From an uncultured beta proteobacterium (GTDB lineage: Bacteria; Pseudomonadota; Gammaproteobacteria; Burkholderiales; SG8-41): a DNA stretch of 64,000 bases. The notes below the pieces were generated by a model, which searched no databases, had not been told where the DNA came from, and saw nothing but the letters and a program-made list of their open reading frames with translations. A program made the translations under genes and the position numbers. The number at the start of each line of letters is the position of its first letter. The first letter of the stretch is position 1. Positions 1 to 17,713 of this stretch are shown piece by piece. The stretch covers positions 84,519 through 148,518 of the forward strand of contig CAVTHV010000016.1 of assembly GCA_963734595.1 (NCBI GenBank). The letters are read 5' to 3'.

Positions 1-1
1 T

Positions 2-661
2 TACGCGGTGATCACCGCGCGCGACGGCGAAGAGGCGCTGAGCAAGTTGAGCAGCGAGACCTACGATCTCGTGTTCACCGACATCAAGATGCCGGGGATG
101 AGCGGTCTCGAAGTGGCCGAACGGGTCAAGGCCAGTCAGCCGTGGCTGCCGGTGGTCATCATCACCGGCTACGGCACGGATGACAACGAAGCCAGGGCCG
201 AAGCCGCGGGCGTCGCAGACTTCCTGCACAAACCGCTGTCGCCGGAAATGATCGAAGACAGCGCGCACAAAGCCCTGCTCGAAAAAGAAGGCGCGGCAGC
301 AGCACCGGCCGCAGTCCCCGCCATTCTGCAGCCGGCAGCCGCGGAGAAGGAAACCGCGCGCGGCGGCATCGGCCTCGCCATCAAAAACGTCGCCCTGTTC
401 TTCGCGGCGCCTTTCATCGGGCTCGCCTACATCCTCGCCCTCCCGTTCGTCGGGCTCGGCATGCTGGCCTGGATGGGAAGCAAATCGCTGATGAAACGGC
501 GCGCGCCCAGGAAAGCCGCCATGTTTCTCAGGAAAGCCGGCATGTTCGTGGTGGCGCCTTTCATCGGGCTCGCCTACATCATCGCGTTTCCGTTCATCGG
601 GTTTGCGATGCTCGCCTGGATCGGCGTCAAGTCGCTGGTGAAACGCGCTGAAACAGAGTAA
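2..661 (+). CDS. Response-regulator receiver (REC) domain protein, 5' end cut by the window edge, with a C-terminal tandem hydrophobic repeat
   Basis: ORF 8..661. REC motifs are present (DLVFTDIKMPGMSG, VVIITGYG, FLHKP). The tail carries two ~33-aa near-identical hydrophobic units (APFIGLAYI..PF.G...LAW.G.KSL.KR). Confidence 0.8.
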   Translation, partial: YAVITARDGEEALSKLSSETYDLVFTDIKMPGMSGLEVAERVKASQPWLPVVIITGYGTDDNEARAEAAGVADFLHKPLSPEMIEDSAHKALLEKEGAAAAPAAVPAILQPAAAEKETARGGIGLAIKNVALFFAAPFIGLAYILALPFVGLGMLAWMGSKSLMKRRAPRKAAMFLRKAGMFVVAPFIGLAYIIAFPFIGFAMLAWIGVKSLVKRAETE

Positions 662-784
662 CGGCATTATAATTACACACAGCAGAAGGCCGCTGCCGCG
701 CAGATAGCGCAGCAGCCGTCGCCGGGAGGCTGAATGCCCCCCGGCGATTTTGTGGTGAGAGTACACAAAGGGGAAAACAACAAA

Positions 785-800
785 TGGCAAACTCCCGGCA
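785..800 (+). promoter_or_regulatory. Possible sigma54 (-24/-12) promoter, TGGCA-N8-GGCA with GG-N10-GC spacing
   Basis: The sequence tggcaaactcccggca has correct GG-N10-GC spacing, and an NtrC-type activator is encoded nearby. It lies only ~12 nt before the ATG at 813, which would imply a near-leaderless mRNA. Confidence 0.25.
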
Positions 801-812
801 AAGTCAGACACC

Positions 813-2105
813 ATGACCCGAGCACCATCAGCCTTTGCCGTAGTTGCGGCCGTGCTGATGCTGTTTTCCATCACGCCCATGCCCGCCGCTGCCGCTGACA
901 GCGCGCTTTCCGACGCGGACAAGACGTGCCTCGGCTGCCACTCGAACGCGGATTTCAAAAAGGATCTCGGGAACGGCAAATCGCTCTCGCTTCACGTAGC
1001 GGGCGACGCGTTCGCCAAGTCGGTCCACGGCGCGATGGGCTGCGCCAGCTGCCATTCCGATATCGACGTCGCAAAGCATTCGTCGGCAAGCCGCGAAATC
1101 AAGGATCCGCGCGAATACTCGATCGCGATGGCGGGGGTCTGCCGCCAGTGTCACGCCGAGGAATTCAAGCAATACGAGGCGAGCAACCATGCCAACCTGC
1201 TGCGCAAGGGCAACCTGTGGGCACCGGTGTGCACGGATTGCCACGGCTCGCATGCGGTCACGCCCAGGACCGCGTACGACACCTGCGTCGGCTGCCACGC
1301 GAGCGCAATGGACGGCCACCAGAAATGGCTCCCCAACGCCCGGCTCCATCTCGAAGTGGTGTCCTGCGCGGCCTGCCATGCACCGGCCGTGCAGCGGATG
1401 GTCGACCTGCGGCTCTACGACACCGCGACCCAAAAATGGGTTTCCGAGAAGGAAGGCCAGCCGCAGTTCGAGAAACTGGCGCGCTCGGCCGACGCAGATG
1501 GCAATGGACTGGATGCCCTCGAGCTGCGCAAACTGCTCGCCGAAATCAACCGCGGCGGCAAGCCGGGCCAAATAACCTTCAGGGGCAGAATCGAGCTGCG
1601 CAAGGAAATCGACGCGCACCAGCTTTCCGACAAGTCCAAGGCACTGCGGACCTGCGACAACTGCCACCGCGAGGGCGCGGAGCCGTTTCAGAATGTGACT
1701 GTGTCCATCATCGGCGCCGACGGCAAGACGCTGCGCTACAACGCCCACAAAGACGTTCTGAGTTCGGTGCTTTCGGTGGATACGCTGCGCCTGTTTTACG
1801 CGATCGGCGGCACCCGCAACAAGGTGCTGGACATACTCCTGGTCCTCGCCGTGCTGGGCGGTCTCGCGGTGCCGATCGGACACCAAACGATGAAACGGTT
1901 GGTCGCACGACAGACCCGGAAAGAAGAAGAGGCCGCGCGCGCAGCCGAACAATCGCAGACTCAAAGCCCGTCCAGGCCCGGCGATGCGCCTGACGGCAGC
2001 GATAAGCCCCAGTTAGAAGGAAACGCAAAATGCAAAAAGTATACGTACATCCGCTTCCGATCAGAATCTGGCACATCATCAACGCGGCCGGCATGCTGGC
2101 CATGA
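813..2105 (+). CDS. Heptaheme c-type cytochrome with signal peptide and C-terminal membrane anchor
   Basis: Seven CXXCH motifs (CLGCH, CASCH, CRQCH, CTDCH, CVGCH, CAACH, CDNCH), an N-terminal signal-like segment and the TM helix VLDILLVLAVLGGLAV. The last ~25 codons overlap the next gene by 76 nt, so the true stop may be earlier. Confidence 0.8.
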   Translation: MTRAPSAFAVVAAVLMLFSITPMPAAAADSALSDADKTCLGCHSNADFKKDLGNGKSLSLHVAGDAFAKSVHGAMGCASCHSDIDVAKHSSASREIKDPREYSIAMAGVCRQCHAEEFKQYEASNHANLLRKGNLWAPVCTDCHGSHAVTPRTAYDTCVGCHASAMDGHQKWLPNARLHLEVVSCAACHAPAVQRMVDLRLYDTATQKWVSEKEGQPQFEKLARSADADGNGLDALELRKLLAEINRGGKPGQITFRGRIELRKEIDAHQLSDKSKALRTCDNCHREGAEPFQNVTVSIIGADGKTLRYNAHKDVLSSVLSVDTLRLFYAIGGTRNKVLDILLVLAVLGGLAVPIGHQTMKRLVARQTRKEEEAARAAEQSQTQSPSRPGDAPDGSDKPQLEGNAKCKKYTYIRFRSESGTSSTRPACWP

Positions 2106-2692
2106 TTTTCACCGGAAGCCAGATCCGCTACATCGGACTCGCCGACGTGCTGCCGTTCCGCACCGCCGTCAACCTGCACAACTGGATCGGGTTTGTTCTG
2201 ATCGGCAACTATTTCATCTGGCTGCTGTTTTACCTGTTTACGGACAAGATCAAGGTGTACCACCCGGAATTGAGCCCGGCCAGGCATTTTCGCAACAGCT
2301 TCCGCCAGATGCAGTATTACGGCTACGGCATATTCAAGGGCCACCCCAATCCGCACCAGGTGAGCGCTTATGACAAATTCAACCCGTTGCAGAGCGGGAT
2401 GTACCAGGTGGTGATGCTGCTGCTCCTGCCCCTCGTGTACGTGACCGGAATCCTGCTGTGGGACGTCAAGCTTTTTTACGGCGTCGTGGAGTGGTTCGGC
2501 GGGGTGCGGGTGGTGGATACGGTGCACGTGCTGATCTACATCTTCTTCGCGTTTTTTACCATTTTTCACATCTACATGGGGAGCCTCGGGCACACGCCGA
2601 CGGCGCACTACAAGGCGATGTTCGTGACCGGTTACGAGGAAGTGGACGAGGCGCACCCGGCTGCCGAACAGCAGGGAACCGGGGTCTCCTGA
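2030..2692 (+). CDS. Membrane b-type cytochrome, PhsC/FdnI/HydC-like family
   Basis: 220-aa polytopic protein with conserved His in its helices (IRIWHIINA.., VNLHNWIG, TVHVLIY.., HIYMG). RBS gaaggaaac lies upstream of the ATG, and the gene is adjacent to the multiheme cytochrome. Confidence 0.7.
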   Translation: MQKVYVHPLPIRIWHIINAAGMLAMIFTGSQIRYIGLADVLPFRTAVNLHNWIGFVLIGNYFIWLLFYLFTDKIKVYHPELSPARHFRNSFRQMQYYGYGIFKGHPNPHQVSAYDKFNPLQSGMYQVVMLLLLPLVYVTGILLWDVKLFYGVVEWFGGVRVVDTVHVLIYIFFAFFTIFHIYMGSLGHTPTAHYKAMFVTGYEEVDEAHPAAEQQGTGVS

Positions 2693-2710
2693 CAGCGGTC
2701 CGGCGCGGCG

Positions 2711-4129
<1,419 letters not shown>

Positions 4130-5775
4130 TGTTTCGCTCCCGCTGTTTGCCGCTGCTGCGTCACCCGCATGAGGATTCAGGGGAAGGTAGATGCGGAACG
4201 TGGATCCCTCCCCGACCCTGCTTTCCACCTCGATCGTCCCGCCGTGGGCCCTGACGATGCCGTGGCTGACGGACAGCCCCAGCCCCGTCCCCTTTCCCAC
4301 TTCCTTCGAGGTGAAAAAGGGATCGAAGATCCGCCGCAGGTTTTTCTCCGGGATGCCGCACCCGGTGTCGATGACCGAGAGTTCCGCCATGGGCACCGCC
4401 GGCGCGCCCGGTTCCGGGCTCTTGGGCTCCGGGCAACAGACGGCTGCGGACGGTGATGCTGCCCTTCTCCTCGATGGCGTGCTGGGCGTTGACGAGCATG
4501 TTCATGATCACCTGCTTGATCAGGTCGGCGTCGACCCACGCCGGCGGCAGACTGCGGTCGAGGTCCAGGGTGATCTCGATGTCGCGCAAATGACGCGGGC
4601 CGCTCGATGATGCGCACCGTGTCCTCGATGATCTGGTTGAGGTCGGCAAATTTCTTCTCCGGCGTCTTTTCGCGGGCGAAATCGAGCAGCCTGCGGATGA
4701 TGGCGGCGCAGCGCTTGGTTTCCCGGATCACCAGGTCGAGGTCTTCCGCCTCCGGGCTCCCGTCCGGCATCTTTTTCCGCAGCAGGTGCGAGAAAGTGAG
4801 GATGCCGGTCAACGGATTGTTCAATTCATGGGCGATCCCGGCGGCGAGCAGCCCGACCGAGGCCAGTTTTTCGCCGCGCGCGGCCTCGGCCTCGGCGACG
4901 CGCAGTTCCTGGGTCCGCCTTTCCACTTTCTGCTCCAGCGTGTGGCCCCATTCCCGCAATTCCAGCTGGGAATTCTTGAGCGCCGCCGTCATGGCGTTGA
5001 ACGAGGCCGCCAGCTGCCCGAATTCGTCCCCGCTGCGCACCGGGATCGGCTGCTCCAGATTTCCCGAGGCGAGCCGCTTGGCGCCGGTTTCCAGGTCGCG
5101 CAGAGGCACATAGACCAGGCGGTGCACGAAAAAGCTGACGAAGAGCGAAGCGATGACGATGAAGCCAAGCGAAAAGCCGGCGATCGTGATCGTGTTCCGG
5201 CGCATGGTCCGGTCGATCTCGTCGAGGTTGTAGACGATGTCGAGGACGCCCAGCACCGACTGCGCCTTGGTATGCACATGGCATGCCGCGGTGTAGCACG
5301 ACGGTTCGTTGCGGATCACCTCCATGCTGCCGAGCAGCCGCCCTCCGTCCGGATTGGCGAAAATCCGCGCCCTCTTGTTCGTGGGAATCTGCGCCAGCGG
5401 CGTCTCGCCCTGGTGGCAGAGGAAGCAGGCTTCGGCTTTCCGGTTCACCTTCATCCCGATTTCCGGCGGGAAGGTGGAGGAAATGATGCGCCCGTCCTTG
5501 CTGAAGATCCGGACCTTCTGAATGTGCTCCTGGCGTCCCACGTCCATGAGAATCCGGTTTACGTAAGCGGGCTGGTTCTGGAGCATGGCGAAACGGGTGC
5601 TCCTGGTGATCACCTCGGAGAGCTGGGTGACGTGGCTCACCGCCTGGTCGAGGAGCTGATCCCGCTGATACCGGACGACCAGCAGGGTGAACACGAGCAT
5701 CGCCGCCATCAACGCGATGGCGAGATAAATGGCGACTTTGAGCTTGAGCGTCTGCGAGCGCATTCTCTCCCTCAC
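4130..5775 (-). CDS. Sensor histidine kinase (TM, periplasmic CXXCH domain, HAMP, HisKA, HATPase) interrupted by two apparent +1 frameshifts
   Basis: Three ORF pieces cover it (4177..5775, 4161..4649 and the N-terminal part of 2711..4396). H-box [11 protein letters not shown]-box [10 protein letters not shown] and G-boxes DTGCGIP/GTGLGL are present. The periplasmic loop has CFLCH. Frame breaks lie near 4590 and 4430. No stop codon separates it from the downstream regulator. Confidence 0.8.
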
Positions 5776-5904
5776 CCTTCTTCAGAAAGGGACGGGAACT
5801 TGTTTTCGGATCGGGGAAACGCCATAAACACGACAGCCTCGAAATTCGGTCGTCCTGACTCGGCAGTACGCTTAAAAGAATAGCAGTTCGACCATAGCGC
5901 CGAA

Positions 5905-5918
5905 TTGACCTGTATCAA
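5905..5918. promoter_or_regulatory. FNR/Dnr-type box TTGACctgtATCAA
   Basis: Perfect TTGAY-N4-RTCAA palindrome in the divergent region between the kinase gene (-) and the c5-fusion gene (+). Confidence 0.5.
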
Positions 5919-6174
5919 ACAGCGGGGCGGGCAGTGCCCGCACGCGGTCCGGTTGCTCCCGTCATGGGCCCAATATGCCGCGCCGCCGGCTGCAAACGGC
6001 ACGGCGCCGCTTTTCCGGAGCCGCCCCGGCCGGATTCCGGGAACGTCAATGCGCCCGGGTCGGGCTGTGAGGTATAATATTTCGCATGTTTGCACGATTA
6101 TTCTGCCCTCCGGCGACCTCGTTCCCGAGGCGTTAATTCTGCCGATGCTTTTCGACCGCAGTTGACCTAAGAGG

Positions 6175-7257
6175 ATGCTGTCCATGCGCAACCCAGTACA
6201 CGCCGAAGGACATTCGTCCTTTGTCCGCACGCCGAAACGACTCCTGGCGGCCATCGTTCTTTGTTCTGCGGCAGCGCTCATGCCGCAACTGGCAGGCGCC
6301 CAGAGCGGCGATCGCAGCGGCAAAGAGGTGGTAGAGGCCGTTTGCGCCGCCTGTCATGCCACGGGCGCGAAGGGCTCGCCCAAAATCGGCGATCAGAAAG
6401 CGTGGGCCAAGCTCGCTGCGCGGGGCCTCAGCAGCCTCACCGCCAGCGCGCTCAAGGGTATCCGGAACATGCCGTCGCACGGCGGCAATCCGTCGCTCAC
6501 CGACAATGAAATCGAGCGCGCCATCACCTATATGGTCAATCAGTCAGGCGGCCACTGGACCGAGCCCATCAGCCGGACACCCGAAGAGCGCAAAGGCGAG
6601 CAGGTCGTGAAATCGCAATGCGCCAAGTGCCATCAGGCCGGCGTCGGCGGCGCGCCGAAGATCGGCGACCGGGCGGCCTGGATTCCCCGGCTCAAGCAAG
6701 GGATGGATTTCCTGGTGCGCTCGGCGATCAACGGGCACGGCGGCATGCCGCCGCGCGGCGGCATGGCCAATCTCACCGATGCCGAAGTCCAGTCCGCGAT
6801 CGTTTACATGGTGAATGGCGGCAGTGTTCCGGCAGCGAAGGCGGCTTCCGCTGCGCCGGCTGCGACAGCCGACCCCAATCATAAGGTCATCGGGGGAACG
6901 GAGATCTATCTGGGCGTCGTCTCGGCGGAATCGATGCGCGCACAGTATCCGAAGGGAAGCCCGGAAAGCGCGATGCACGGGGGCATCCCGAGCGGCAGGG
7001 GCTATTACCACGTGAACATCTCGCTGCTCGACAGCAAGACCAAAGCGGTGATCACGGATGCGCAGGTAGAGGCGAAAGTCGCGGAACCCACCGGCGGCGA
7101 AACGAAAAAGCTCGAGCTCGTGACGCTCAACAACACGAAGAGCTATGGCAACTATTTCCGCATGCCCAGCAAGAACCCCTACACGATTACGGTGCAAATC
7201 CAGAGGCCGGGCGCAGCGCGGCCGATCGTGGCCAGGTTCGATTACAGGCACTACTGA
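6175..7257 (+). CDS. Diheme cytochrome c5-type protein fused to a C-terminal ~130-aa domain of unknown function
   Basis: Signal peptide, then two c5-like units (CAACH..PKIGD..MPSHGG; CAKCH..PKIGD..MPPRGG). An Ala-rich linker leads to a domain with a beta-rich appearance (HGGIPSGRGYYHVNISLLD...ITVQIQRPG). Confidence 0.75.
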   Translation: MLSMRNPVHAEGHSSFVRTPKRLLAAIVLCSAAALMPQLAGAQSGDRSGKEVVEAVCAACHATGAKGSPKIGDQKAWAKLAARGLSSLTASALKGIRNMPSHGGNPSLTDNEIERAITYMVNQSGGHWTEPISRTPEERKGEQVVKSQCAKCHQAGVGGAPKIGDRAAWIPRLKQGMDFLVRSAINGHGGMPPRGGMANLTDAEVQSAIVYMVNGGSVPAAKAASAAPAATADPNHKVIGGTEIYLGVVSAESMRAQYPKGSPESAMHGGIPSGRGYYHVNISLLDSKTKAVITDAQVEAKVAEPTGGETKKLELVTLNNTKSYGNYFRMPSKNPYTITVQIQRPGAARPIVARFDYRHY

Positions 7258-7283
7258 CGGTCGACGCGCATTGCGTTCAAAAA

Positions 7284-7306
7284 AGCTGGCTGCGGCCGGC
7301 TTTTTT
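7284..7306 (+). terminator. Rho-independent terminator after the c5-fusion gene
   Basis: The 7-bp stem agctggc/gccggct has one G-U pair and loop tgcg. A T6 run follows and an A6 run precedes it, so it may act in both directions. Confidence 0.55.
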
Positions 7307-7607
7307 GTTGCCCGCCGCAAGGATGCGGCAGCGCAACGCGGCAACAATCCACTCCGTTGATCCGTGCCGGGGTATCAGTAAATTATCATTAAAAACAACG
7401 TATTACATACTCTGTTCGGATGCGTGGCGCAGCCGTCCTGATGTTAAACGGCGCGCGTCGGCACATCCCGCGCGCACGCTGCTTTCAACCCTCGCGAACA
7501 TGTGCATTTGCGCCCGCGTATTGCGGCCGGCGTTGCCGATCGAAATTGCGCGCCTTGCGCAATCCCTCGCTGCATGGGGCCACACCCGACCAGCCGTTCG
7601 CATCCGT

Positions 7608-7621
7608 TTGACGCAGATCAA
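7608..7621. promoter_or_regulatory. FNR/Dnr-type box TTGACgcagATCAA
   Basis: Perfect palindrome inside the 725-bp non-coding gap, ~370 bp upstream of the tetraheme cytochrome gene. Confidence 0.4.
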
Positions 7622-7982
7622 AGGCAACGGGAGGCGACAACGCTAGCATTGACACCGCATTGATCGGCAACCATTTCCGGGGGAAAGCATCGCAACCACG
7701 TTGGTAAAAACGATCGCATCATCGCAACACCGCGGGTCGATAATTTCAAAAGGGCTGTGCGTGGATTTCGCGCTCAAACCCCGCTCGGCAGTCGTTGCGC
7801 CGTCTGCTCTTTATCCGTGATCACCCGATTGTTTCCGCCTGGGGCGACGAGGCCGCATCGCCGCGCCCAAATCCGGTCCCAGCGCAGTGGGGATTCTGGC
7901 ATGCGCCGGCCCGGCGTCGCCGAATAGAGACGGACACCGGGCAGGTATAGAATGTCGGGGATTTCTGTAACAGTTTAGGGGA

Positions 7983-9221
7983 ATGTCGATGACACGAAAC
8001 ACAGGCACTCTACTCGCTGCGGCATTCATGCTCGCTGCGGCCATCACGAGCGTGGGTTATTCCCCGGCCACGACCGCCCAGCCTGCCACGATCAAGGCCG
8101 GCAGCGGTGACGATCTTCGGGCGGTCTACGCTGGTGCCCCGGAGGTCGCGGAGGGCGCCCGCGTCGCAACGGCCTCGTGCGCCAGCTGTCATGGCAAGAA
8201 CGGCATCAGCCGCGCGAAGGGCATGCCGAACATCGCCGGCCAGCGACCGGCATACCTCTACAACGAACTCGTGGCCTACAAGCAAGGCACCCGCAAAGAT
8301 CCCGGCATGGGGAACGCCGTCAAGTTCCTGAGCGACGATGCGCTGGTCAAGGTCGCCGCTTACTATGCCAGCCTCGATCCCGCACAACCCGAGGTGAAGA
8401 GCGACGCCAAGGCCGCGCCCGCCAAGGACCCGCTGGCGGCCGGCAAGGCCGCGGCGGCCGGCTGCGCAGGCTGCCACGGCGAGCTCGGCATCAGCTCGAC
8501 GCCGGGCATGCCCAGCCTCGTCGGACTCGATCCGAAATACCTGGTTGCGGCGATGACCGCCTACAAGAACGGGCAACGCAAGAACGACATCATGAAGACG
8601 CTGATGGCGGCCTTCAGCGAAGCGGACATGAAGAACGTCGCGCTGTTCTACGCGCTGCAAAAACCCGCGCGGGCCAAGACCCCGGCTCCCGGCAAGCAGG
8701 ACGCGGGCAAGGCGGCGGCAGCGGCTTGCTCCGGATGCCATGGCGATCAGGGCGTCAGCGGCAGCCCCGCGACGCCGAGCCTCGCCGGCCAGGACGCGCA
8801 GTACTTCGCGAGCGCAATTCAGGCCTACAAGGACGGCTCCCGCAAGGACGACACGATGAAAGGACTCGCGGCGTCACTCGACGACAACGCCATCAAGGAT
8901 CTCGCGGCCTATTTCGCAGCCCAGCAGCCGCAGGCGCCGAAAGTAGCCAAGCCTCTGTCTACCGCCGAGCTGGCGCAACGATGCGACCGCTGTCACGGCG
9001 TCAACGGCAACAGCACCGACCCGCGCCACCCGGCGCTGGCCGCGCAACGCGTCGATTATCTGATGAAAACCCTGCGCGACTATCATTCGGGGCTGCACAA
9101 GAATTCGGCGATGAATGCGATGTCCAGCACGCTGACCGATACCGATATCGAAAATCTCGCGGCCCACTATGCAAGCCAGAAAGCGCGGGCCTTCACTTAC
9201 GTGCTGATACCTTCCAAATGA
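7983..9221 (+). CDS. Tetraheme c-type cytochrome built from four c4/c553-like domains
   Basis: Signal peptide and four CXXCH motifs (CASCH, CAGCH, CSGCH, CDRCH). Each is followed by ..P.L.GQ...Y....L..Y..G.R and ..M. Confidence 0.8.
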   Translation: MSMTRNTGTLLAAAFMLAAAITSVGYSPATTAQPATIKAGSGDDLRAVYAGAPEVAEGARVATASCASCHGKNGISRAKGMPNIAGQRPAYLYNELVAYKQGTRKDPGMGNAVKFLSDDALVKVAAYYASLDPAQPEVKSDAKAAPAKDPLAAGKAAAAGCAGCHGELGISSTPGMPSLVGLDPKYLVAAMTAYKNGQRKNDIMKTLMAAFSEADMKNVALFYALQKPARAKTPAPGKQDAGKAAAAACSGCHGDQGVSGSPATPSLAGQDAQYFASAIQAYKDGSRKDDTMKGLAASLDDNAIKDLAAYFAAQQPQAPKVAKPLSTAELAQRCDRCHGVNGNSTDPRHPALAAQRVDYLMKTLRDYHSGLHKNSAMNAMSSTLTDTDIENLAAHYASQKARAFTYVLIPSK

Positions 9222-9438
9222 TCGGGCCGATCAACGGATTGTTGCCTGCGGCCTATGCCGGGAGCCGCCCAAACGATGGCTGGACATGTCTGCGACGGGT
9301 TGTCGCGCGATGTCCGGCCACGGACAATCCCGGTGCCAAAGCGTATAATTTTTTCGTGCTAAAAACAGGGCTGGAGCATCGTGATGCGGCTTGAACCGCA
9401 CCCGAACATCCCGGCCCACAACACTAAAGGAATCAATC

Positions 9439-10221
9439 GTGAGTGATGTGCCACTGCACCGCCATTACCTTCATTATTCCGAGCTGCCCTACAGCATGCG
9501 CGTCCTGTATACCTCGGTGCTGCTCATACTGGGGTTGGGTTACATATTCGCGCTGACCTACGTGTTCGTCGCCCAGTCCGGCAAGGACGGCAAACCGGGA
9601 TTGTCATACGACGACATCGTCATCACCTACAGCGGCAGCGGCAAGGGTTCCCGGCTGGAAACCGCCCTGCGCGGACCGATGCAGAGCATGCTGCCGCCCG
9701 ACGAAATCGGCCCCATCATCGCCTGGGTGCAGGAAGGCGCCGGCCGCGAGGCGTACGAGAAGACGATCAGACCGACGCTGGACAAGCGCTGCATCAGCTG
9801 CCACGACGGCAGCAACCCGCACCTGCCGAATCTGAGCGGCTACGACAATCTCAAGAAAGTGACCGAGCGGGACACCGGCGCCTCGATTGCCACGCTGGTC
9901 CGCGTGTCGCACATCCACCTGTTCGGGCTTTCCTTCATCTTCTTCATCGTGGGCCTCATCTTCAGCCACGCCTACCTGCGGCCCGTCTGGTTCAAGTGCG
10001 CCGTCATCGCGCTGCCTTTCGTCGCCATCGTGATGGATGTCAGCTCCTGGTATTTCACCAAGCTCTTTCATCCGTTTGCCCTGGTCGTGATGGCCGGCGG
10101 CGGCCTGATGGGCATGTGCTTCGCCTTCATGTGGGTGGTGTCGATGTATCAGCTGTGGTTCTCCAGGACGCCTTCGCCCGTCGCGCAGAGAGGGGGCGGC
10201 GAAACTCCTGTCGTTGGTTGA
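9439..10221 (+). CDS. Polytopic membrane protein with one CXXCH motif in a predicted periplasmic loop
   Basis: RBS aaggaa lies 6-7 nt before the GTG at 9439. Hydrophobic helices are present, and the loop reads TLDKRCISCHDGSNPHLPNL. A TATAAT hexamer sits at 9344..9349. Confidence 0.6.
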   Translation: MSDVPLHRHYLHYSELPYSMRVLYTSVLLILGLGYIFALTYVFVAQSGKDGKPGLSYDDIVITYSGSGKGSRLETALRGPMQSMLPPDEIGPIIAWVQEGAGREAYEKTIRPTLDKRCISCHDGSNPHLPNLSGYDNLKKVTERDTGASIATLVRVSHIHLFGLSFIFFIVGLIFSHAYLRPVWFKCAVIALPFVAIVMDVSSWYFTKLFHPFALVVMAGGGLMGMCFAFMWVVSMYQLWFSRTPSPVAQRGGGETPVVG

Positions 10222-10288
10222 CGTGAGCGCAGACGAGGCGAGGCCGGGTTCTCACCGTGGCGGTTTGGCATGGTCCGGGGTGCGGTGT

Positions 10289-10302
10289 TTGATCCACGTC
10301 AA
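10289..10302. promoter_or_regulatory. FNR/Dnr-type box TTGATccacGTCAA
   Basis: Perfect palindrome ~250 bp upstream of the nonaheme-cytochrome b gene. Confidence 0.45.
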
Positions 10303-10495
10303 CGTCTGCCGCCCGCCATCCGTGTACATTTTGCGTTGTGACAACGCAGTCGATATTCTGAAAGCAGGAACACCGTGCGCCGCCATTCCTCAGCAAGCGT
10401 CGCACGGTGCGTCCCCGGGGACGGGTGTCGACGTATGCCGGGAAATGATCTACAGCTTTAAAAACACGCCTATGGAGCCTGCTTTCGGAGATCCC

Positions 10496-10511
10496 CGGCA
10501 CCTTCGTTGGC
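10496..10511 (+). promoter_or_regulatory. Possible sigma54 promoter, cGGCACcttcgTTGGC (one base too long in the -12 element)
   Basis: The sequence would match TGGCAC-N5-TTGC if one G of TTGGC were removed. It is well placed ~40 nt upstream of the ATG at 10552. Confidence 0.3.
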
Positions 10512-10551
10512 GTGAGCGGACCGACGAGATCAATCAGGGAGTCAAAAGAAA

Positions 10552-12550
10552 ATGCGGATTAAAAAGCTTGCCCCGTGGCTGATTGCGGGCTTTATTTGTG
10601 TGGCGGGCGCACCGGTGGCATGGGGAGCGGAAACAGAAGCCGCCAGCGCCCAGGCCGCCGCCCCGGCGGCCGAAAAAATCGACAACGCGGTCTGCCTGGG
10701 CTGTCATGGCAACGAAGGCTTTGCCATGCCGGGCCCGGACGGCAAAATGCGCTCGTTGCACGTGATACCGGACAAGTTCGGCAACAGCGTTCACGGCAAG
10801 CGGTTTTGCGTCGAGTGCCACAAGGACATTACCGAGATTCCGCATAAAACCGGCGTGCAGCACAAGGTCAGTTGCGTGCAGTGCCACGAGGACTTGTGGG
10901 CAAAAGCCCAGAGGGATGGAAAGACCGCGGAGAACGCGCGCCTTGGCGTGGTGGTGCAGCAGATCGACCGGTACATGAAATCCATCCATGCCCGCCCCAG
11001 CCGGGAAGACCAGTCGCGCACCAACGCCACCTGCTACAACTGCCACGATGCCCACTATGTCTACCCGAAAGGCAGCGCCGGCCGCGCGGCGTGGCGCCTG
11101 ACCATTCCCGACGTTTGCGGCAAGTGCCACACCGCGGAACGGCAAGCTTTATGGGGAATCGGTGCATGGCGACGAAGTCCTGAAGAAAAAGAATCCCAAG
11201 GCGGCGGTGTGCTCGGATTGCCATACCACCCATGACATCGAAGATCCGGCGCTCGACAAGAGCAGGCTGGTCATTACCAAGAACTGCGGGAACTGCCACG
11301 CGGAAAACCTGAAGACCTACACCGAAACCTATCACGGGCAGGTCAACACGTTGGGCTATGCCTATACGGCCAAGTGTTTCGACTGCCATGGCAGCCACGA
11401 CATCAAGCGGACCACCGATCCCGACTTCGACGGTGTATCCGGCACAACCGCCTGAAAACCTGCCAGCAGTGTCATACCAACGCGACCCAGGGGTTCGTGA
11501 CGTTCGAACCGCACGGCACGACTCATGATTTCAAGCGTTTTCCGCTGATATGGATCGCGCAAAAATTCATGCTGGGACTGCTCTTTGGCACGTTTGCATT
11601 TTTCTGGACGCATACGGCCCTGTGGTTCTATCGCGAATACAAGGATCGCCAGCAGCGCAAGACGCGGCCGCACGTGCTGACGGATGAACTGCTGGAGGGC
11701 AAGTTTTTCCGGCGCTTCCCGCTGCTCTGGCGGGCCGCCCACCTCACCTTCGCCGTGAGCCTGATGATCCTGGCCCTCACCGGCATGGCGGTGTTTTACG
11801 CCGACACGGCGTGGGCGCCAGTCGTCATGAATGCGTTAGGCGGGCCGAAAGTGGCGGCGCTCATCCACCGGACCTTTGCGGTGATTTTTGCGATCGGTAT
11901 TTTTCGGGCACCTGATCTATGTCGCACTCCGCGTTGGCCGCAACTGGCGTAATTTCGACTGGTTCGGGCCCAACTCGCTGGTTCCGCGCTGGCAGGATCT
12001 GTGGGACATCGTCGCCATGTTCACCTGGTTCTTCGGCAAGGGACCGCGGCCGGTGTTCGACCGCTGGACCTACTGGGAGAAATTCGACTACTGGGCGCCG
12101 TTCTGGGGTGTCACGATCATCGGCATGAGCGGCGTCATGCTGTGGTTCCCGAGCGTGACCGCCTCGTTCCTGCCCGGCTGGGTGTTCAACATCGCCACCA
12201 TTTTCCACGGGGAAGAAGCGCTGCTGGCCGTCCTGTTCCTGTTCACGGTGCATTTCTTCAACAACCATTTCAGGCCGGACAAGTTCCCGCTGGATATCGT
12301 GATGTTCACCGGCGCGGTGCCGCTCGAGGAGTTCAGCCGCGAGCACACGGTGGAATACAACCGGCTGGTCAAAACGGGCGAACTCGAGAAGTACCTGGTG
12401 GACAAGCCGACGGAGCCGATGACCCTGGGCTCGAGGATATTGGGCTTCACCCTGATCGCCGCCGGCCTGACGCTGCTGACGCTGGTGCTGGTCGGAGTTC
12501 GTAGGAAGTATGATGAAAGGCTGAGCGGCCCGCGAAGAAATTGCCGCTGA
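10552..12550 (+). CDS. Nonaheme c-type cytochrome fused to a membrane b-type cytochrome domain (CbcL-like), interrupted by about 4 apparent +1 frameshifts
   Basis: ORF pieces 10552..11235, 11162..11455, 11374..11952 and 11888..12550 join into one protein. It has nine CXXCH motifs (CLGCH, CVECH, CVQCH, CYNCH, CGKCH, CSDCH, CGNCH, CFDCH, CQQCH) followed by a multi-helix His-containing membrane domain. Frame breaks lie near 11140, 11430, 11441 and 11905. Confidence 0.75.
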
Positions 12551-12679
12551 TGCGTGCGGCGGGAGTCGGGCTAGGTTTCCGATCGTTATCGGAATAAAAT
12601 GTTATCTATATCAATGGCATAAATTCGGGCCGGCAGCAGACCAGCGCCGGCCGGCCCGAAGATATCTGCGAGGTTTCAA

Positions 12680-13840
12680 ATGAAACATTTTATGCTGGGT
12701 ATTGCGTTGGCGGCGGCGTTGGCCGGATGCACGGAAAAAGAACAGTCGACTCCGAAAACCACGCCTGCGGCTGCCACCCCGCCTGCAGCCGAGAAGCGGA
12801 TTGCCGGGGACGTTGCCGCGGGCAAGGCCATCGCCGAGCGAACCTGCAAAGCCTGTCACGGCCTGGATGGCAAAGGCGTCGCCCCGGCCATTCCGAACCT
12901 CGCGGCACAACGTGAGCGTTATCTGCTCGCGTCGTTGCAGGAGTACAAAGACGGCAAGCGCCATCACGCCGCCCTCAAGAGCATGGCGGAAAAAATGAGC
13001 GATGCGGACATTCGCAACGTGGTCGCGTACTATTCGCCAGTCTGCCGCCGATCGCGAACCCCTCTGCCGGCGATATCAAGCACTCATCGCTTTATGAAGA
13101 AGGGCAAGAAGCTGGCGGCGGGCTGCACGAAGTGTCATGGCGAAGACGGCAACAGCAAAACTCCCGGCACGCCCAGCCTGGCCGGCCAGCAACCCCACTA
13201 TCTGGTCGCCGCCATCCAGGAGTATCACCAGGGAGACCGCAAAACGGCCGTGATGAAGGCGATGCTGAGCGATACGGAAAAACTGCAACTGGAAAACCTC
13301 GCGCTCTATTTCGCGGCCCAGACTCCGGTTGAACGTGCCGCCCCCGCCAAGGGCGACGCGGCCGCCGGCGAACCGCTCACCGCCATGTGCGGCGGCTGCC
13401 ACGGCTTTCACGGCGTGAGCACCGACTCGGCGACGCCGAGTCTTGCCGGCCAGGATCCCGAATACCTGGTGAAAGCGATGAAGGCCTACAAAACCACCCG
13501 CAAGAACTGGGGCATGCAGCGCTATATCGCCGGGCTCAGCGACAAGGACATGGAAAATATCGCGGCCTACTACGCGGTCCAGAAACCCCAGGCCGCCGAT
13601 AAAGTACCGGGTTCCGCCCAGGAACTGGCCGAAAAATGCAATCGCTGCCACGACGCCGAGAACCCCACAATGACGGCTCCCAAAATGCGGGGGCAGGACA
13701 AGGACTATCTGGTCATGGCCCTGCGGGCGTATCGCGATGGCAGACGCGAAAGCTCTACCATGCACAACATGAGCTTCCCCTACAGCAACGCCATGATAGA
13801 AAGCATCGCTTCCTGGTACGCGAATCAGCCGGCGAAATAA
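12680..13840 (+). CDS. Tetraheme c4-like cytochrome lipoprotein
   Basis: Lipobox LAGC and four CXXCH motifs (CKACH, CTKCH, CGGCH, CNRCH), paralogous to 7983..9221. A short internal out-of-frame stretch runs ~13031-13104 (see findings). Confidence 0.8.
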   Translation: MKHFMLGIALAAALAGCTEKEQSTPKTTPAAATPPAAEKRIAGDVAAGKAIAERTCKACHGLDGKGVAPAIPNLAAQRERYLLASLQEYKDGKRHHAALKSMAEKMSDADIRNVVAYYSPVCRRSRTPLPAISSTHRFMKKGKKLAAGCTKCHGEDGNSKTPGTPSLAGQQPHYLVAAIQEYHQGDRKTAVMKAMLSDTEKLQLENLALYFAAQTPVERAAPAKGDAAAGEPLTAMCGGCHGFHGVSTDSATPSLAGQDPEYLVKAMKAYKTTRKNWGMQRYIAGLSDKDMENIAAYYAVQKPQAADKVPGSAQELAEKCNRCHDAENPTMTAPKMRGQDKDYLVMALRAYRDGRRESSTMHNMSFPYSNAMIESIASWYANQPAK

Positions 13841-13905: not shown

Positions 13906-14655
13906 CTACTGCAACAGGCCGCTCAGGCCCGGCACCACGCGACACAACAGCCCGTCGGCGGCGAAGACGGCGGGCTGCGTGGCCTTGATGATGCCGAAAA
14001 TCCCCAGTCCGCCGATGACGATGCTGCTTGCAACACGCAACGGGCGCAGCGCCGCAAGCTTCCGGACCTGACCGTACAGCAGCGAAATAGCCAACAGGTT
14101 CGGCAGGGTGCCGAGACCGAAAGCGAACATGACCAGCGCGCCCTGGCGGGCGTCGGCCGTTGCCATCGCGGTGAGGAGCAGCGCATAGACCATGCCGCAC
14201 GGCAGCCAGCCCCACACCGCGCCCAACCCCAGCGCACGCGGCACGGAGTCGACCGGAAGAAACCAGCGGGAATAAGGTTGCACGCGGCGCCATACCACCG
14301 CTCCTGCGGCCTCGATGCCGCGCGCGACCGGCGTCACGCCCGCCACATACAGCGCAAGCAGCAGCAGCGTGGCGCCGGCAAAGAACATCATGACGTGCTG
14401 CGCCAGAGGCCCGCCGCGCAGCCACAGCCCGCCCTGGCCAAGGGCGCCGGCCAGGGAGCCGGCCACGGCGTAGCTGAAAATGCGCCCGCCGTTATAGGCC
14501 AGCGCATAACGCCATTGCCGGGGAACCCTTTCACCGCCGGCGCGCGGCCCGCTGACGATGCCGACAATGCCGCCGCACATCGCCGCACAATGCGCGCCGC
14601 CCATCAGCCCGGCGACGAAAGCGCTGGTTACGACCAGTTCAAGCCAGCCGTTCAT
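13906..14655 (-). CDS. TauE/SafE or DsbD_2 family membrane protein
   Basis: 249-aa polytopic protein with the N-terminal motif GGAHCAAMCGG. This type is commonly linked to cbb3 oxidase maturation loci. Confidence 0.7.
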   Translation of the reverse strand: MNGWLELVVTSAFVAGLMGGAHCAAMCGGIVGIVSGPRAGGERVPRQWRYALAYNGGRIFSYAVAGSLAGALGQGGLWLRGGPLAQHVMMFFAGATLLLLALYVAGVTPVARGIEAAGAVVWRRVQPYSRWFLPVDSVPRALGLGAVWGWLPCGMVYALLLTAMATADARQGALVMFAFGLGTLPNLLAISLLYGQVRKLAALRPLRVASSIVIGGLGIFGIIKATQPAVFAADGLLCRVVPGLSGLLQ

Positions 14656-14787
14656 TGCGATTGAGGCGTAAGCGGTGAGCGGAAGTGGAAGTGAGTGCGG
14701 GATGAAGAGTCAAGTCAAAAACGTTGCGAATCGAACACCCGAATCTCGAGCCCTGAATCCTGAATCCCGGATCCTGAACCCTCTGCG

Positions 14788-16190
14788 TCATATGACGCGC
14801 GAGTAGCGGCCGACTTCGCTTTCGTGACGCAGGTACTTGTCGAACACCATGCAGATATTGCGGATCAGCATGCGTCCTACCGGCGTCACGTTGATCCATC
14901 GATCGTCCAGATCGAGCAATCCTTCCTTGGCCAGGCCGGCCAACTCGGCGAGCTCTGTCTGCGAAATACTTATCAAAATCAATGAGGTAGGATAGCTCTA
15001 TCGCCTGTTTCGACAGCGCGAAATGGCACATCAGCGATTGAATCACGGCGCGGCGCAGCAGGTCATCCGCCGTGAGTTCCAGGCCCCGCATGATCGGCAG
15101 TTCGCCATGATCGAGGCTGTCATAGTATTCCTCGATGCGGCGAAAATTCTGGCTATAAGTCGGGCCTATGCTGCCGATGGCCGAGACGCCGAGCGCCACC
15201 AGATCGCACTCGGCGTGGGTCGAATAGCCCTGGAAATTGCGGTGCAGCCGGCCCTGCCGCTGCGCGACGGCCAGCGAGTCGTCGGGCAGGGCAAAATGAT
15301 CCATGCCGATGTAGACATAGCCGGCCTCGGTCAGCCGCTGCGCGGACAGCGCCAGCAGTTTCAGTTTGGTTTCCGGAGACGGCAGGTCGGCTTCGTTGAT
15401 CTGGCGTTGCGTCTTGAAACGCGCGGGCAGGTGGGCGTAATTGTAAACCGCGATGCGGTCGGGCCGCGCGGCGACGATCTGCGCCAGGGTGCGGTTGAAG
15501 GTGATCAGGTTTTGCTTCGGCAGCCCGTAGATCAGATCGACATTGACCGAAAGAAAGCCCTCCCGCCGCGCCGCATCGATGATGCCCAGCGTCTGTTGTT
15601 CGCTTTGCAGGCGGTTCACCGCCTGCTGCACGTCGGGATCGAAATCCTGCACGCCGAGACTGAGCCGGTTGAAACCCATGACGCGCAGCGCGGCAACCGT
15701 TTTCTCGTCGACCGTTCTCGGGTCGATTTCGATCGAATACTCGCCATCGGGCGAGAACTCGAAATTCCGCCGCAACAGCACGAACAGATTCTGCATCTGT
15801 TCGGTGCTGAAAAAAGTCGGCGTGCCGCCGCCCCAGTGCATCTGTTCGACCCGCGGATCCTGGCTGAACAGCGGCGCCTGCAGCGCAATTTCCTTTTCGA
15901 GGTAATTCAGATACTCGACGCCGCGACTTTTGTTGCTGGTCACGACCTTGTTGCACCCGCAGTAGTAACAGATCGTGTTGCAGAACGGCAAATGCACGTA
16001 AACCGACAGCGCGCGCTGGATGCCGCCGATATTGCGCTTGGCCACCCACTGCCGGTAAGCGTCCGGCCCGAATGCCTCATGCGAGGCGGTCGGCGGTGGG
16101 ATAAGAGGTGTAGCGCGGGCCGTTGCGGTCGAGCCTGCGGATCAGGTCCAGGTCGACTTCGAACGGCAGATGATCGGAAATGGAATTCAT
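14788..16190 (-). CDS. hemN: Oxygen-independent coproporphyrinogen III oxidase (radical SAM), interrupted by two apparent +1 frameshifts
   Basis: N-terminus GPRYTSYPTA, radical SAM motif HLPFCNTICYYCGC, C-terminal piece VTPVGRMLIRNICMVFDKYL (ORF 14788..14982). Frame breaks lie near 16080 and 14960. Confidence 0.9.
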
Positions 16191-16419: not shown

Positions 16420-17172
16420 ATGTTAGCCCAGCCCAAGCTCATCCCGGTCGACCTCGGCAAGCTCAAGACCGTCTGTGCCACGTGCAGCCTGCACGAGCTA
16501 TGCCTGCCCGCGGAGCTCGACCCGAACGAACTGGCGATCTTCGACCGGCTGTTTACCCACCGCCGGTCCGTAAAGCGCGGCGACTATCTTTACCGCGCCG
16601 GCGCGGAACTGCAATCGCTCTACGCCATCCGCACCGGCTTCATGAAAAGCTGCGTGTTGCACGAGGATGGCCGGGAGCAGGTCGCGGGCTTTCACATGAT
16701 GGGCGACCTGCTGGGGTTCGATGCGATCAGCTCGAACCGCCACACCTGCGACACCGTGGCGCTCGAAGACAGCGATGTCTGCGACATCCCGTTCCATTCG
16801 CTGGAAAAACTGTCGCGCGAAATTCCGTCGCTGCAGCATCATTTTCACCGCATGATGAGCCGCGAAATCGTGCGCGACCATGGCGTGATGCTGCTGCTTG
16901 GCAGCATGCGCGCGGAAGAGCGCCTGGCCGCTTTTCTGCTCAACCTGTCCCAGCGCTTCGCCGTGCGCGGCTATTCGCCGACCGAGTTCAACCTGCGCAT
17001 GACGCGGGAGGAAATCGGCAGCTATCTCGGCCTCAAGCTCGAAACCATCAGCCGCGTGCTGTCCCGCTTCCAGGAAGAGGGGCTGATCGATGTGCGTAAT
17101 AAACACATCAAAATCAACGGCCTGGATAAAATACGGGCACTGGTCAACCCGCCTTCCGCGCCTAAACCCTGA
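16420..17172 (+). CDS. fnr: FNR-type oxygen-sensing Crp/Fnr family transcription factor
   Basis: N-terminal Cys cluster CATCSLHELC (C-X2-C-X5-C) plus internal Cys residues, a cNMP-like domain, and an HTH with E..SR (REEIGSYLGLKLETISRVLSRF). Confidence 0.9.
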   Translation: MLAQPKLIPVDLGKLKTVCATCSLHELCLPAELDPNELAIFDRLFTHRRSVKRGDYLYRAGAELQSLYAIRTGFMKSCVLHEDGREQVAGFHMMGDLLGFDAISSNRHTCDTVALEDSDVCDIPFHSLEKLSREIPSLQHHFHRMMSREIVRDHGVMLLLGSMRAEERLAAFLLNLSQRFAVRGYSPTEFNLRMTREEIGSYLGLKLETISRVLSRFQEEGLIDVRNKHIKINGLDKIRALVNPPSAPKP

Positions 17173-17183
17173 CCGCTCCGCAG

Positions 17184-17474
17184 TCAGAACTTATAGCGCG
17201 TTTGTTGCAGATAAGAAACGACGTCTTCGACTTCCTCCGCGCTCCAGCGCAGGTTCTCCTGCTCGGACCAGTGAACGACGATCTCGCGTAGCTCATCCGC
17301 ATTGAGCGGCAGGCGATTGGGCCGGCTATGAATATTGGGCGTGTGGCAAAACTGGCAATGATTCTCGTAGAGCGCGCGCCCTCGCGCGAGGTCGGGTATT
17401 TCAGCCGCTCCCGACAGGCTCGAGAAAACAGTCAACGCCGCTGCCAAGCCGGCTGCAGGCCATCGTTTTAACAT
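17184..17474 (-). CDS. Small monoheme c-type cytochrome
   Basis: Signal peptide MLKRWPAAGLAAALTVFSSLSGAA and the heme motif CQFCH. Its start overlaps the upstream gene (ATGTTAA). Confidence 0.7.
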   Translation of the reverse strand: MLKRWPAAGLAAALTVFSSLSGAAEIPDLARGRALYENHCQFCHTPNIHSRPNRLPLNADELREIVVHWSEQENLRWSAEEVEDVVSYLQQTRYKF

Positions 17475-17713
17475 TTTGTGTTGCGCCGGATCACCGTCTC
17501 GATTTCTGTTTCTGCCCGGCATCGATCCTCCTCGCGGTAATTTCCCGGTTCGACGCAGCGATAACGCTCCGCACGAAAATACGCGGCGTCCTCGATCAAT
17601 CGCCGGCGTTGTTCCGCGGAAATGACGATCCCTGCTCTGGACCGGCCGGCCGCAGATTTCGGCGCGGCGCGCTTTTTGGCGATTTTCCTGGTGGATGTAC
17701 GGGATACGGTCAT
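17468..17713 (-). CDS. DUF2934-like small basic protein
   Basis: RBS aggagg precedes the ATG at 17713. The C-terminal motif AAYFRAERY...GNYREEDRCRAETEI is typical of DUF2934. Confidence 0.55.
   Translation of the reverse strand: MTVSRTSTRKIAKKRAAPKSAAGRSRAGIVISAEQRRRLIEDAAYFRAERYRCVEPGNYREEDRCRAETEIETVIRRNTKC

Follow-up and report, generated by a model that had tools for sequence, protein, structure and literature searches.

A cytochrome-rich block from an uncultured betaproteobacterium combines a CbcL/MtoC-type fusion gene with a CbcBA/BccR-type locus

The first 13,840 bases of a 64-kb stretch of DNA from an uncultured betaproteobacterium (contig CAVTHV010000016.1; the whole stretch is called the window below) carry a block of cytochrome genes, labelled A to J (Table 1). 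Two unrelated devices in this block would couple the quinone pool to periplasmic haems. One is gene I, a fusion of nine c-type haem sites and a cytochrome b domain from the CbcL/MtoC/MtrH family, and the other is the split pair B-C, which together with the regulator pair D and E resembles the CbcBA/BccR system of Geobacter. Taken alone, these family assignments are made from sequence with high confidence. With distinctly less assurance, we favour reading the block as the inner-membrane and periplasmic part of an Mtr/Mto-type system linked to extracellular electron transfer (EET), in either direction. From the same comparisons we predict complex formation, regulation, an EET role in this genome and the direction of flow. 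Both protein families have been published, and the gene set is largely of a known kind.

Six of the genes (B, F, G, H, I and J) together hold 27 CXXCH motifs (7+2+4+1+9+4), and a 28th lies in the periplasmic sensor domain of kinase E. Counted in six frames, there are 31 CXXCH motifs in bases 1-13840 and 7 in the other 50 kb, an enrichment that exceeds chance by far. The gene positions and the 27 haem c sites had already been proposed from the bare sequence (hereafter the original prediction), and they match the open reading frame (ORF) listing and our Pfam and NCBIfam scans.

Gene I and the CbcL/MtoC/MtrH family

Gene I is interrupted by single-base insertions in the assembly, and its corrected reading is described here (see Sequence integrity). 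It starts with a signal peptide and nine CXXCH motifs, each at least 99% conserved among 78 homologues, and about nine further conserved histidines are free for bis-His ligation. Hydropathy predicts six transmembrane (TM) helices, at residues 331-349, 388-406, 433-451, 521-539, 546-564 and 631-649. In this membrane part, His396, His438, His551, His566 and His571 are invariant in the same homologues. Support for a cytochrome b domain in the sequence of I itself is weak but concordant: PF01292 scored 24.3 bits (E 3e-5), under its cut-off of 30.1, TIGR01583 matched at E 6e-8 and the FdnI chain 1KQF_C at E 0.18. Many close homologues of I have a precomputed PF01292 match.

More than 2,400 proteins matched I, and at least 593 matching stretches were found in species-representative genomes. 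Proteins encoded at the mtoC/mtrH position in clusters of Gallionella, Rhodoferax and Ramlibacter share 53-58% identity with I over at least 90% of its length; the names of these positions come from the literature (PMC6295460, PMC5566968), where the family is described. In Gallionella metagenome-assembled genomes (MAGs), a 55-56%-identical homologue is followed by genes for a monohaem MtoD-like protein, a decahaem MtoA-like cytochrome and an MtrB/PioB porin. In Ramlibacter lithotrophicus RBP-1 and in Rhodoferax MAGs, the homologue adjoins mtrCAB-type genes. The porin beside the I homologues was verified as PF11854 (E 3e-126).

Because the architecture (nine-haem N-terminal domain, six TM helices), the conserved ligands including the histidines expected of a dihaem b domain, the concordant b-domain matches and the homologues at named mtoC/mtrH positions all agree, gene I is assigned by sequence to the CbcL/MtoC/MtrH family, within its MtoC/MtrH subgroup. 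Its nearest named kin are CbcL (GSU0274) of Geobacter sulfurreducens, MtoC of Gallionella ES-2 and Dechloromonas RCB, and MtrH of Rhodoferax ferrireducens. The published architecture of CbcL comprises nine haems and six helices, of which the fifth holds two histidines of an FdnI/HydC-like b domain (PMC6295460; bioRxiv 10.1101/2021.04.15.440034), and CbcL is about 35% identical to MtoC/MtrH (PMC6295460). I shares the nine-haem periplasmic N-terminus, the six helices and the FdnI/HydC-like dihaem b domain of these proteins, and like CbcL has two of its conserved histidines in the fifth helix. Unlike mtoC and mtrH, however, I does not adjoin mtoAB or mtrCAB here, and it is followed by a tetrahaem c4-like lipoprotein gene (J) instead of, or besides, the monohaem mtoD. 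It also differs from the known systems in the FNR-type box that precedes it, and its quinone is presumably ubiquinone, whereas Geobacter CbcL works with menaquinone.

A CbcBA/BccR-type locus

Genes B, C, D and E are predicted to form a CbcBA/BccR-type locus that is homologous, gene for gene, to a locus of Oryzomonas japonica (Geobacteraceae). The Oryzomonas locus encodes a kinase, a divergent sigma-54 regulator, two small membrane proteins, a 7-haem cytochrome and a cytochrome b. In Geobacter, CbcBA consists of a seven-haem CbcA, whose C-terminal helix has a candidate haem-b histidine, and a "thiosulfate-reductase-like" dihaem cytochrome b, CbcB; its regulator BccR has a REC/sigma-54/HTH architecture (bioRxiv 10.1101/2021.04.15.440034). 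The G. sulfurreducens complex is induced at low redox potential and is required for respiration below about -0.21 V (bioRxiv 10.1101/2021.04.15.440034). B, C, D and E match CbcBA (Cbc5, GSU0593-0594), BccR (GSU0598) and the kinase encoded next to them component by component, and B-C has a PhsC-like dihaem b protein, a seven-haem, His-anchored c-type cytochrome upstream of it and a neighbouring BccR-type regulator.

B has TM helices at residues 7-25 (signal peptide) and 338-356 (C-terminal anchor). The anchor ends in a histidine (PIGH) that is kept in all nine homologues that reach it. B is 28% identical over 382 amino acids (E 6e-37) to the product of the 7-haem gene upstream of Oryzomonas cbcB, a protein of 351 amino acids with a C-terminal TM helix and the motif PVGH. 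The N-terminal five-haem part of B is homologous to the N-terminus of I (E 2e-13), and more distant relatives of B have nine haems rather than seven. The best NCBIfam match of C was NF011582 (PhsC, the thiosulfate-reductase b subunit; E 1.4e-29, below cut-off), and C is 36% identical over its full length to Oryzomonas CbcB (P0491; E 5e-46, and 5e-45 when repeated locally). Its conserved histidines are His15, His50, His165 and His180. The family of C comprises 643 representative clusters, many of which are extended at the N-terminus by a long stretch, probably with a multihaem domain. In one gammaproteobacterial locus (L030), B and C are fused into one gene.

The frame of B overlaps the start of C by 76 nt (2030-2105) and B homologues end earlier, so an assembly error may have produced the C-terminal tail of B by read-through. 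C is preceded by a ribosome-binding site of its own, GAAGGA.

We also considered the split pair as a second CbcL, as the original prediction had it when it described two CbcL-style modules. This was rejected, as BLASTP found no similarity between C and the b domain of I (E 0.09). The fused module is CbcL-type by architecture and homology, and the description of B-C as a heptahaem protein with a TM anchor plus a separate cytochrome b was correct, but the CbcL-style label gives way to CbcBA. Likewise, the sigma-54 two-component system that had been listed around the modules is present, yet it is no bystander: its genes are the BccR-type regulator pair of the CbcBA-like operon.

Regulator D matched PF00158 (E 5e-70), PF00072 (E 3e-33) and HTH_8, and is 52% identical over 466 amino acids (E 1e-172) to the Oryzomonas regulator that is divergent from cbcA and cbcB. 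Kinase E is 33% identical over 391 amino acids (E 9e-84) to the Oryzomonas kinase beside the bccR-like gene. The periplasmic sensor region of E (4630-5775) has the motifs CFLCH and CYTAACH, and both spacings, CxxCH and CxxxxCH, are shared with the Oryzomonas kinase. For comparison we used 81 related loci collected with tblastn, whose ORFs were clustered all against all. One CXXCH occurs in all 10 E homologues in these loci. The shared motifs suggest that E is a putative haem-c redox sensor controlling a sigma-54 activator. In Oryzomonas, a stand-alone paralogue of the sensor domain lies downstream of the cbc genes (kinase at 1755-3341 and paralogue at 8978-9820 of L082).

Gene A, with which the visible part of the CbcBA-like operon begins, is cut at the left window edge, beyond which the block extends: its PF00072 match covers profile positions 27-108 only, and TM segments span residues 130-209. 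The motif APFIGLAYI-A-PF-G--MLAW-G-KSL-KR occurs twice, as a duplicated TM hairpin. In 8 related loci, one or two A-like genes lie upstream of B-C. Genes for a response regulator and a small membrane protein stand upstream of cbcA in Geobacter (bioRxiv 10.1101/2021.04.15.440034), and A may be the equivalent of these separate genes. The order of small membrane/REC genes, cbcA and cbcB is common to the window locus and CbcBA. Of 7 related loci, 6 have a sigma-54 element of the -24/-12 type (TGGCAC-N5-TTGC) immediately before the A-A-B-C operon, upstream of its first A gene.

The window locus differs from CbcBA in several respects. Its upstream gene fuses a REC domain to two TM hairpins, its regulator pair is convergent and not divergent, and it sits next to a CbcL/MtoC-type gene. 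Its host is a betaproteobacterium, and the 2021 description lists no CbcBA host from that group. In the literature we searched, no betaproteobacterial locus of the CbcBA/BccR type with a physical link to an MtoC-type gene is described. Of all the steps of EET, the one carried out by inner-membrane quinone oxidoreductases is the least understood, and these enzymes serve as genomic markers for EET. The physically linked co-occurrence of CbcL/MtoC- and CbcBA/BccR-type systems in uncultured Burkholderiales-like nitrate reducers adds to the hosts reported for CbcBA and makes it a stronger marker.

Periplasmic carriers and the membrane protein H

Domain scans confirmed the two four-domain c4-like cytochromes (G and J) and the membrane protein with a single CXXCH (H) named in the original prediction. 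Its dihaem c5 fusion is F, with two class-I haem domains and an extra domain.

G and J are related to the PdsA model NF049874 (E 7e-36, 124 bits, and E 4.5e-35, 121 bits). Both are tetrahaem and far under the cut-off of 330 bits, so they are kin of PdsA in fold and domain type only. In an alignment with six homologues, J has a conserved lipobox (LAGC) and a conserved methionine after each CXXCH, and its four domains are predicted to be of the His/Met class-I type. In Aeromonas hydrophila, NetBCD and PdsA form an Nrf-like quinol dehydrogenase and a periplasmic dihaem c4-type shuttle that serve MtrCAB. G and J would be built of two PdsA-like dihaem units each, and in loci related to the window a 6-haem/NrfC/NrfD trio that adjoins mtrCAB immediately precedes G-H. 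The block differs from that system in the tetrahaem form of G and J, in the lipoprotein nature of J and in the absence of the NrfCD-type trio from the window.

F belongs with cytochromes that have PF13442-type domains. Its C-terminal 140 amino acids gave weak matches to DUF4426, P19 and YtkA (E 0.02-0.1); no solved structural relative of this beta-sandwich-like domain was found. Homologues of F occur in 13 related loci. A terminator-like hairpin lies downstream of F (7288-7301), and F is probably monocistronic. The 725-nt gene-free spacer between F and G (7258-7982) holds this hairpin and an FNR-type box at 7608. No remnant of the 6-haem/NrfC/NrfD trio, which lies upstream of G-H in many relatives, was found in this spacer.

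H gave no match in the Pfam and NCBIfam sets scanned, a Pfam set that does not include PF27139. There are 3,497 homologues, and the 120 listed are 70-78% identical and carry PF27139. Positions H23, H28, M97, M100, C134, C137, H138, H144, H174, H176 and H193 are invariant or nearly so. TM helices are predicted at 43-61, 166-184, 199-217 and 229-247, and His23, His28, His174, His176 and His193 lie at membrane boundaries. The AlphaFold2 model is mediocre (predicted local distance difference test, pLDDT, 65) and had no fold match in the PDB. From the conserved residues, H may be a candidate transmembrane carrier that combines c- and b-type haem. The H family is not described as a candidate EET component in the literature searched. 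Public records misname its members as "elongation factor-1 alpha" or "protein S100".

Conserved gene pairs and their outer-membrane partners

Two gene pairs recur among the related loci. I is followed by a tetrahaem c4-like gene of the J type, with 25 starts within 500 nt downstream of I, and a tetrahaem c4-like gene is followed by H in about 30 loci, where H always comes after G. Both pairs, I-J and G-H, span beta-, gamma- and alphaproteobacterial loci (MAGs), and such conserved pairs are not described in the literature we searched. The pairs are accompanied by the 6-haem/NrfC/NrfD trio in 13 loci (by Pfam), and a CbcBA-like regulon lies beside I in 10.

Porin-cytochrome genes were found within the flanks of 29 of the 81 related loci, of 16 of the 38 loci with tetrahaem c4-like and H genes in context, and of 9 of the 15 with at least 8 kb on both sides. 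The genes mtoA, mtrB and mtrC turn up repeatedly, often in the same orientation as the I-J or G-H genes. Operon-like orders include G-H-mtrC-mtrA in L010 and I-J-mtrC-mtrA in L017, and G-H is co-oriented with mtrC-mtrA in both L010 and L036. The membrane-to-periplasm conduit of the original prediction thus gains comparative support, as the same genes often lie beside, and co-oriented with, mtrCAB or mtoAB in relatives. The comparative set flags the tetrahaem c4-like carriers and H as candidate parts that travel with these clusters. By contrast, no cco family is among the 60 most widespread neighbour families of the 81 loci.

Additional I-like paralogues were seen in some relatives. A second, five-haem paralogue occurs in the alphaproteobacterial loci L027, L028, L033, L040 and L043 (Hyphomicrobiales, Pseudolabrys, Xanthobacteraceae); this paralogue, at about 15.8-17.5 kb in L027, is convergent to G-H and beside a 10-haem MtoA-like gene. 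Versions with seven haems are found in L030, a gammaproteobacterial locus, and in L042, an alphaproteobacterial one. Six of this group of loci (L027, L028, L030, L033, L040, L042 and L043) have a hemN-like gene upstream of I.

FNR-type boxes and the wider window

We searched the window for FNR/CRP-type boxes (TTGAT-N4-ATCAA, at most one mismatch) and found 15, against 0.79 expected. Three lie in the block (Table 1), and the others start at 22414, 23456, 27583, 28194, 33546, 35569, 35652, 38261, 41495, 41528, 44606 and 46875; one box stands directly upstream of ccoN. Among related loci, 34 of 76 have a box within 450 nt upstream of the I homologue (background 0.057 per 450 nt), mostly in the subgroup with tetrahaem c4-like and H neighbours.

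Outside the block, the window encodes hemN, two crp/fnr genes (16420-17172 and 44693-45382), ccoGPON, nrdD/nrdG, a U32 peptidase (46974-47987) that may be UbiU/UbiV-like, and narGHJI with a narK-like major facilitator superfamily gene (56105-63926). The window is a low-oxygen regulon island, and its host is presumably a ubiquinone-using betaproteobacterium that respires nitrate and low oxygen. No sox, nir, nor or nos genes are present in the window. The original prediction would have fallen if these proteins had belonged to a Sox or NirS pathway with no quinol-oxidase domain; we found no equivalog-level Sox or Nir match and two cytochrome b domains. Scans of the window for sigma-70 promoters and terminators did not rise above the shuffle background, except for the plausible terminator after F, and an Rfam search of the window found no RNA family. 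An ORF at 17187-17783 (minus strand), between an fnr-like gene and ccoG, is small, contains a single CXXCH and weakly matches class-I cytochrome c.

Table 1 Genes of the block and FNR/CRP-type boxes near them (positions in the window).
Feature	Position	Strand	Description	Evidence
Gene A	1..661	+	REC domain and tandemly duplicated TM hairpin	PF00072 E 9e-21
Gene B	813..2105	+	CbcA-like periplasmic heptahaem cytochrome c, C-terminal anchor	7 CXXCH
Gene C	2030..2692	+	CbcB-like dihaem cytochrome b	PF01292 E 3e-21, 76 bits
Gene D	2711..4129	-	BccR-like sigma-54-dependent response regulator	REC, sigma-54 AAA+, HTH_8
Gene E	~4130..5775	-	Sensor histidine kinase	HAMP and HisKA domains
Gene F	6175..7257	+	Periplasmic dihaem class-I cytochrome c with C-terminal domain	PF13442 E 7e-30, PF00034, two domains
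Gene G	7983..9221	+	Secreted tetrahaem cytochrome, four c4-like class-I domains	4 CXXCH, PF00034 in 4 stretches
Gene H	9391..10221	+	Four-TM membrane protein, periplasmic monohaem c domain	1 CXXCH, PF27139 family
Gene I	10552..12524	+	Nine-haem/cytochrome b fusion (corrected end 12524)	CbcL/MtoC/MtrH family
Gene J	12680..13840	+	Tetrahaem c4-like lipoprotein, four class-I domains	4 CXXCH, PF00034 E 7e-31
FNR/CRP-type box	5905..5918		TTGACCTGTATCAA; divergent E/F intergenic region	1 mismatch
FNR/CRP-type box	7608..7621		TTGACGCAGATCAA; 362 nt upstream of G	
FNR/CRP-type box	10289..10302		TTGATCCACGTCAA; 250 nt upstream of I	

Proposed function and direction of electron flow

Coupling to the quinone pool is supported for both modules by homology to genetically characterised inner-membrane cytochromes of Geobacter. 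In the scheme we propose, the membrane dihaem b domain of I would exchange electrons with quinone or quinol and pass them to or from its nine periplasmic c haems, with J as its fixed downstream partner. B and C would form a CbcBA-type complex in which C provides the presumed quinone/quinol site and the C-terminal helix of B probably supplies a haem-b ligand. The B-C operon would be activated by D once it is phosphorylated by kinase E, whose haem-c domain would sense the periplasmic redox state. The FNR-type boxes would put F, G-H and I-J under low-oxygen control. F, G and J may serve as soluble or tethered class-I carriers across the periplasm, and H, the partner of G, as another membrane haem protein. 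If there is an outer-membrane partner (MtoAB, MtrCAB or an equivalent), its genes would lie outside the window.

Several observations weigh against an EET role. The adjacent decahaem MtoA/MtrA and MtrB/PioB porin genes that characterise Mto/Mtr clusters were not found: the 64-kb window has no gene for a decahaem cytochrome, an MtrB/PioB porin or NrfD, and no Cyc2-like or MtrC-like gene. A tblastn search of the window for remnants of mtrB, mtoA, mtrC and nrfD was also negative, with narH as the sole NrfC-like match, so the original prediction was right that the window lacks an outer-membrane porin-cytochrome. Six of the 15 well-flanked relatives likewise have none within 10 kb. G and J carry His/Met class-I domains. 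Such domains in cytochromes c4 and c5 usually have a high potential and donate electrons to cbb3 oxidase or nitrite reductase, and a cbb3 operon lies 5-10 kb from the block. All function is deduced from homology and synteny, and gene I is frameshifted as assembled. The link from I to CbcL runs through the published 35% identity of CbcL to MtoC/MtrH and not through an alignment with GSU0274, and the Geobacteraceae comparison for CbcBA was made with the Oryzomonas locus, which was reached via representative clusters, and not with GSU0593/GSU0594. Finally, a search for sigma-54 sites in the window gave 5 matches against 6.3 expected, none of them upstream of a cytochrome gene. As A is truncated and the 5' end of its operon lies beyond base 1, the relevant promoter is probably to the left of the window.

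The direction of flow can be read in two ways within the same scheme. We slightly favour outward flow (quinol oxidation), by analogy with the Geobacter homologues, since genetics has defined both CbcBA and CbcL there as quinol oxidases that work outward (bioRxiv 10.1101/2021.04.15.440034). In addition, relatives with I-J or G-H (L010, L017 and L036) carry an extracellular MtrC-type decahaem cytochrome, a hallmark of mineral-reducing Mtr systems. Inward flow is a possibility that we hold more tentatively. Electrons from Fe(II) or a cathode would enter through an Mto-type conduit encoded elsewhere, reach J, G and F, and then be split between cbb3 or nitrate respiration and the uphill reduction of quinone by I and B-C. 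This would suit the class-I His/Met carriers, which fit a high-potential donor chain, the presence of narGHJI and cbb3 genes in the same window, and the closest named relatives of I, which include MtoC-position proteins of Fe(II)-oxidising Gallionella. MtoC has been proposed to reduce quinone in an Fe(II)- or cathode-driven reaction, opposite to its Geobacter homologues, and the CbcL/MtoC/MtrH family is held to be bidirectional (PMC6295460). Sequence does not fix the direction. Inward flow would use the same parts in the opposite sense, so we treat it as a variant already counted within the EET reading and not as a true alternative to it.

A separate explanation, which we consider unlikely, is an internal respiratory branch. 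I-J, with G-H and F, would then be a bc1-independent quinol:cytochrome c4 oxidoreductase that delivers electrons to the adjacent cbb3 oxidase, and possibly to reductases in the periplasm, when oxygen is limiting. Like the c4 and c5 cytochromes that donate to cbb3 in Pseudomonas, Neisseria and Vibrio, G and J have class-I His/Met c4-type domains and F has c5/cbb3-type domains. The neighbours of the block include hemN, an fnr-like gene and ccoGPON, and the genes of the block share FNR-type boxes with ccoN. The window has no outer-membrane conduit, and neither do the flanks of 22 of the 38 loci with tetrahaem c4-like and H genes. However, G and J have four domains and not two, F has its extra beta-sandwich-like domain, and in other genomes G and J are paired with the membrane proteins H and I and not with cco. 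The adjacency to cco is not conserved, as its families are absent from the 60 most widespread neighbours, whereas mtoA, mtrB and mtrC recur and are often co-oriented. Moreover, both quinone modules come from families with characterised members that serve extracellular acceptors.

Returning to the EET reading, a more specific and rather doubtful proposal is that I-J and G-H, often with the 6-haem/NrfC/NrfD trio and a CbcBA-like regulon, constitute a so far undescribed modular, FNR- and redox-controlled "inner half" of the Mtr/Mto systems of beta-, gamma- and alphaproteobacteria, with H as a new c+b carrier and J as the tether to the outer-membrane conduit. If this were true, homologues of CbcL and CbcBA, which in Geobacter are low-potential menaquinol oxidases, would cooperate in ubiquinone-based nitrate reducers, possibly in reverse.

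Sequence integrity

As assembled, region 10552-12550 consists of four listed ORFs with five frame changes and no single open frame. The original prediction had read it as one nine-haem gene and crossed the five frameshifts without comment. We compared it with a metagenomic contig (L001) that is 97% identical to the window and encodes an intact 655-amino-acid homologue of I (P0001). The two differ by seven one-base indels, all of them +1 insertions in the window: five in I (11146, 11424, 11445, 11894 and 12498) and two in the upstream non-coding spacer. Deleting the five insertions restores a reading of 655 amino acids that ends at 12524 and has no stop codon. It is 98.5% identical to P0001, with 44 synonymous and 10 non-synonymous codon differences, as expected of a gene predicted to be under strong purifying selection.

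Other genes are broken as well. J has an internal double frameshift, which scrambles residues ~105-135 relative to six aligned homologues. The C-terminal third of kinase E is split over three frames, with its HATPase part in two other frames. The same kind of breakage affects the unrelated genes hemN, narG, nrdD, acrB and rtcB. Because the indels are insertions only, occur in non-coding DNA too and leave a gene under purifying selection, the breaks in I are almost certainly, on this sequence comparison, assembly errors and not decay. The pattern looks like that of an unpolished long-read assembly. With such +1 errors, the nine-haem/cytochrome b fusion would escape automated annotation altogether.

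Real bacterial pseudogenes show a deletion bias and a relaxed ratio of non-synonymous to synonymous substitution (dN/dS). A pseudogene reading of I was rejected on its dN/dS, the insertion-only pattern and the like breaks in unrelated genes. It is therefore very improbable that the five frame-breaking insertions in I, the double shift in J and the two shifts in the kinase are real and mark a decaying, non-functional conduit in this strain, as all seven indels are +1 insertions, two in non-coding DNA, corrected I has 44 synonymous to 10 non-synonymous differences and no stop, and narG, nrdD, acrB, rtcB and hemN are broken alike.

Across window positions 10343-12498, coding and non-coding, the +1 insertion rate relative to the 97%-identical contig is about 1 per 330 bases. 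Broken genes lie at 4130-5775, 12680-13840, 14639-16045, 28188-32620, 33491-34666, 41643-43487 and 59000-62744; narG, for example, appears as two ORFs, and HlyD is joined artificially to AcrB. The density of insertions is uneven, with ccoN and a 763-amino-acid stretch of AcrB unbroken.

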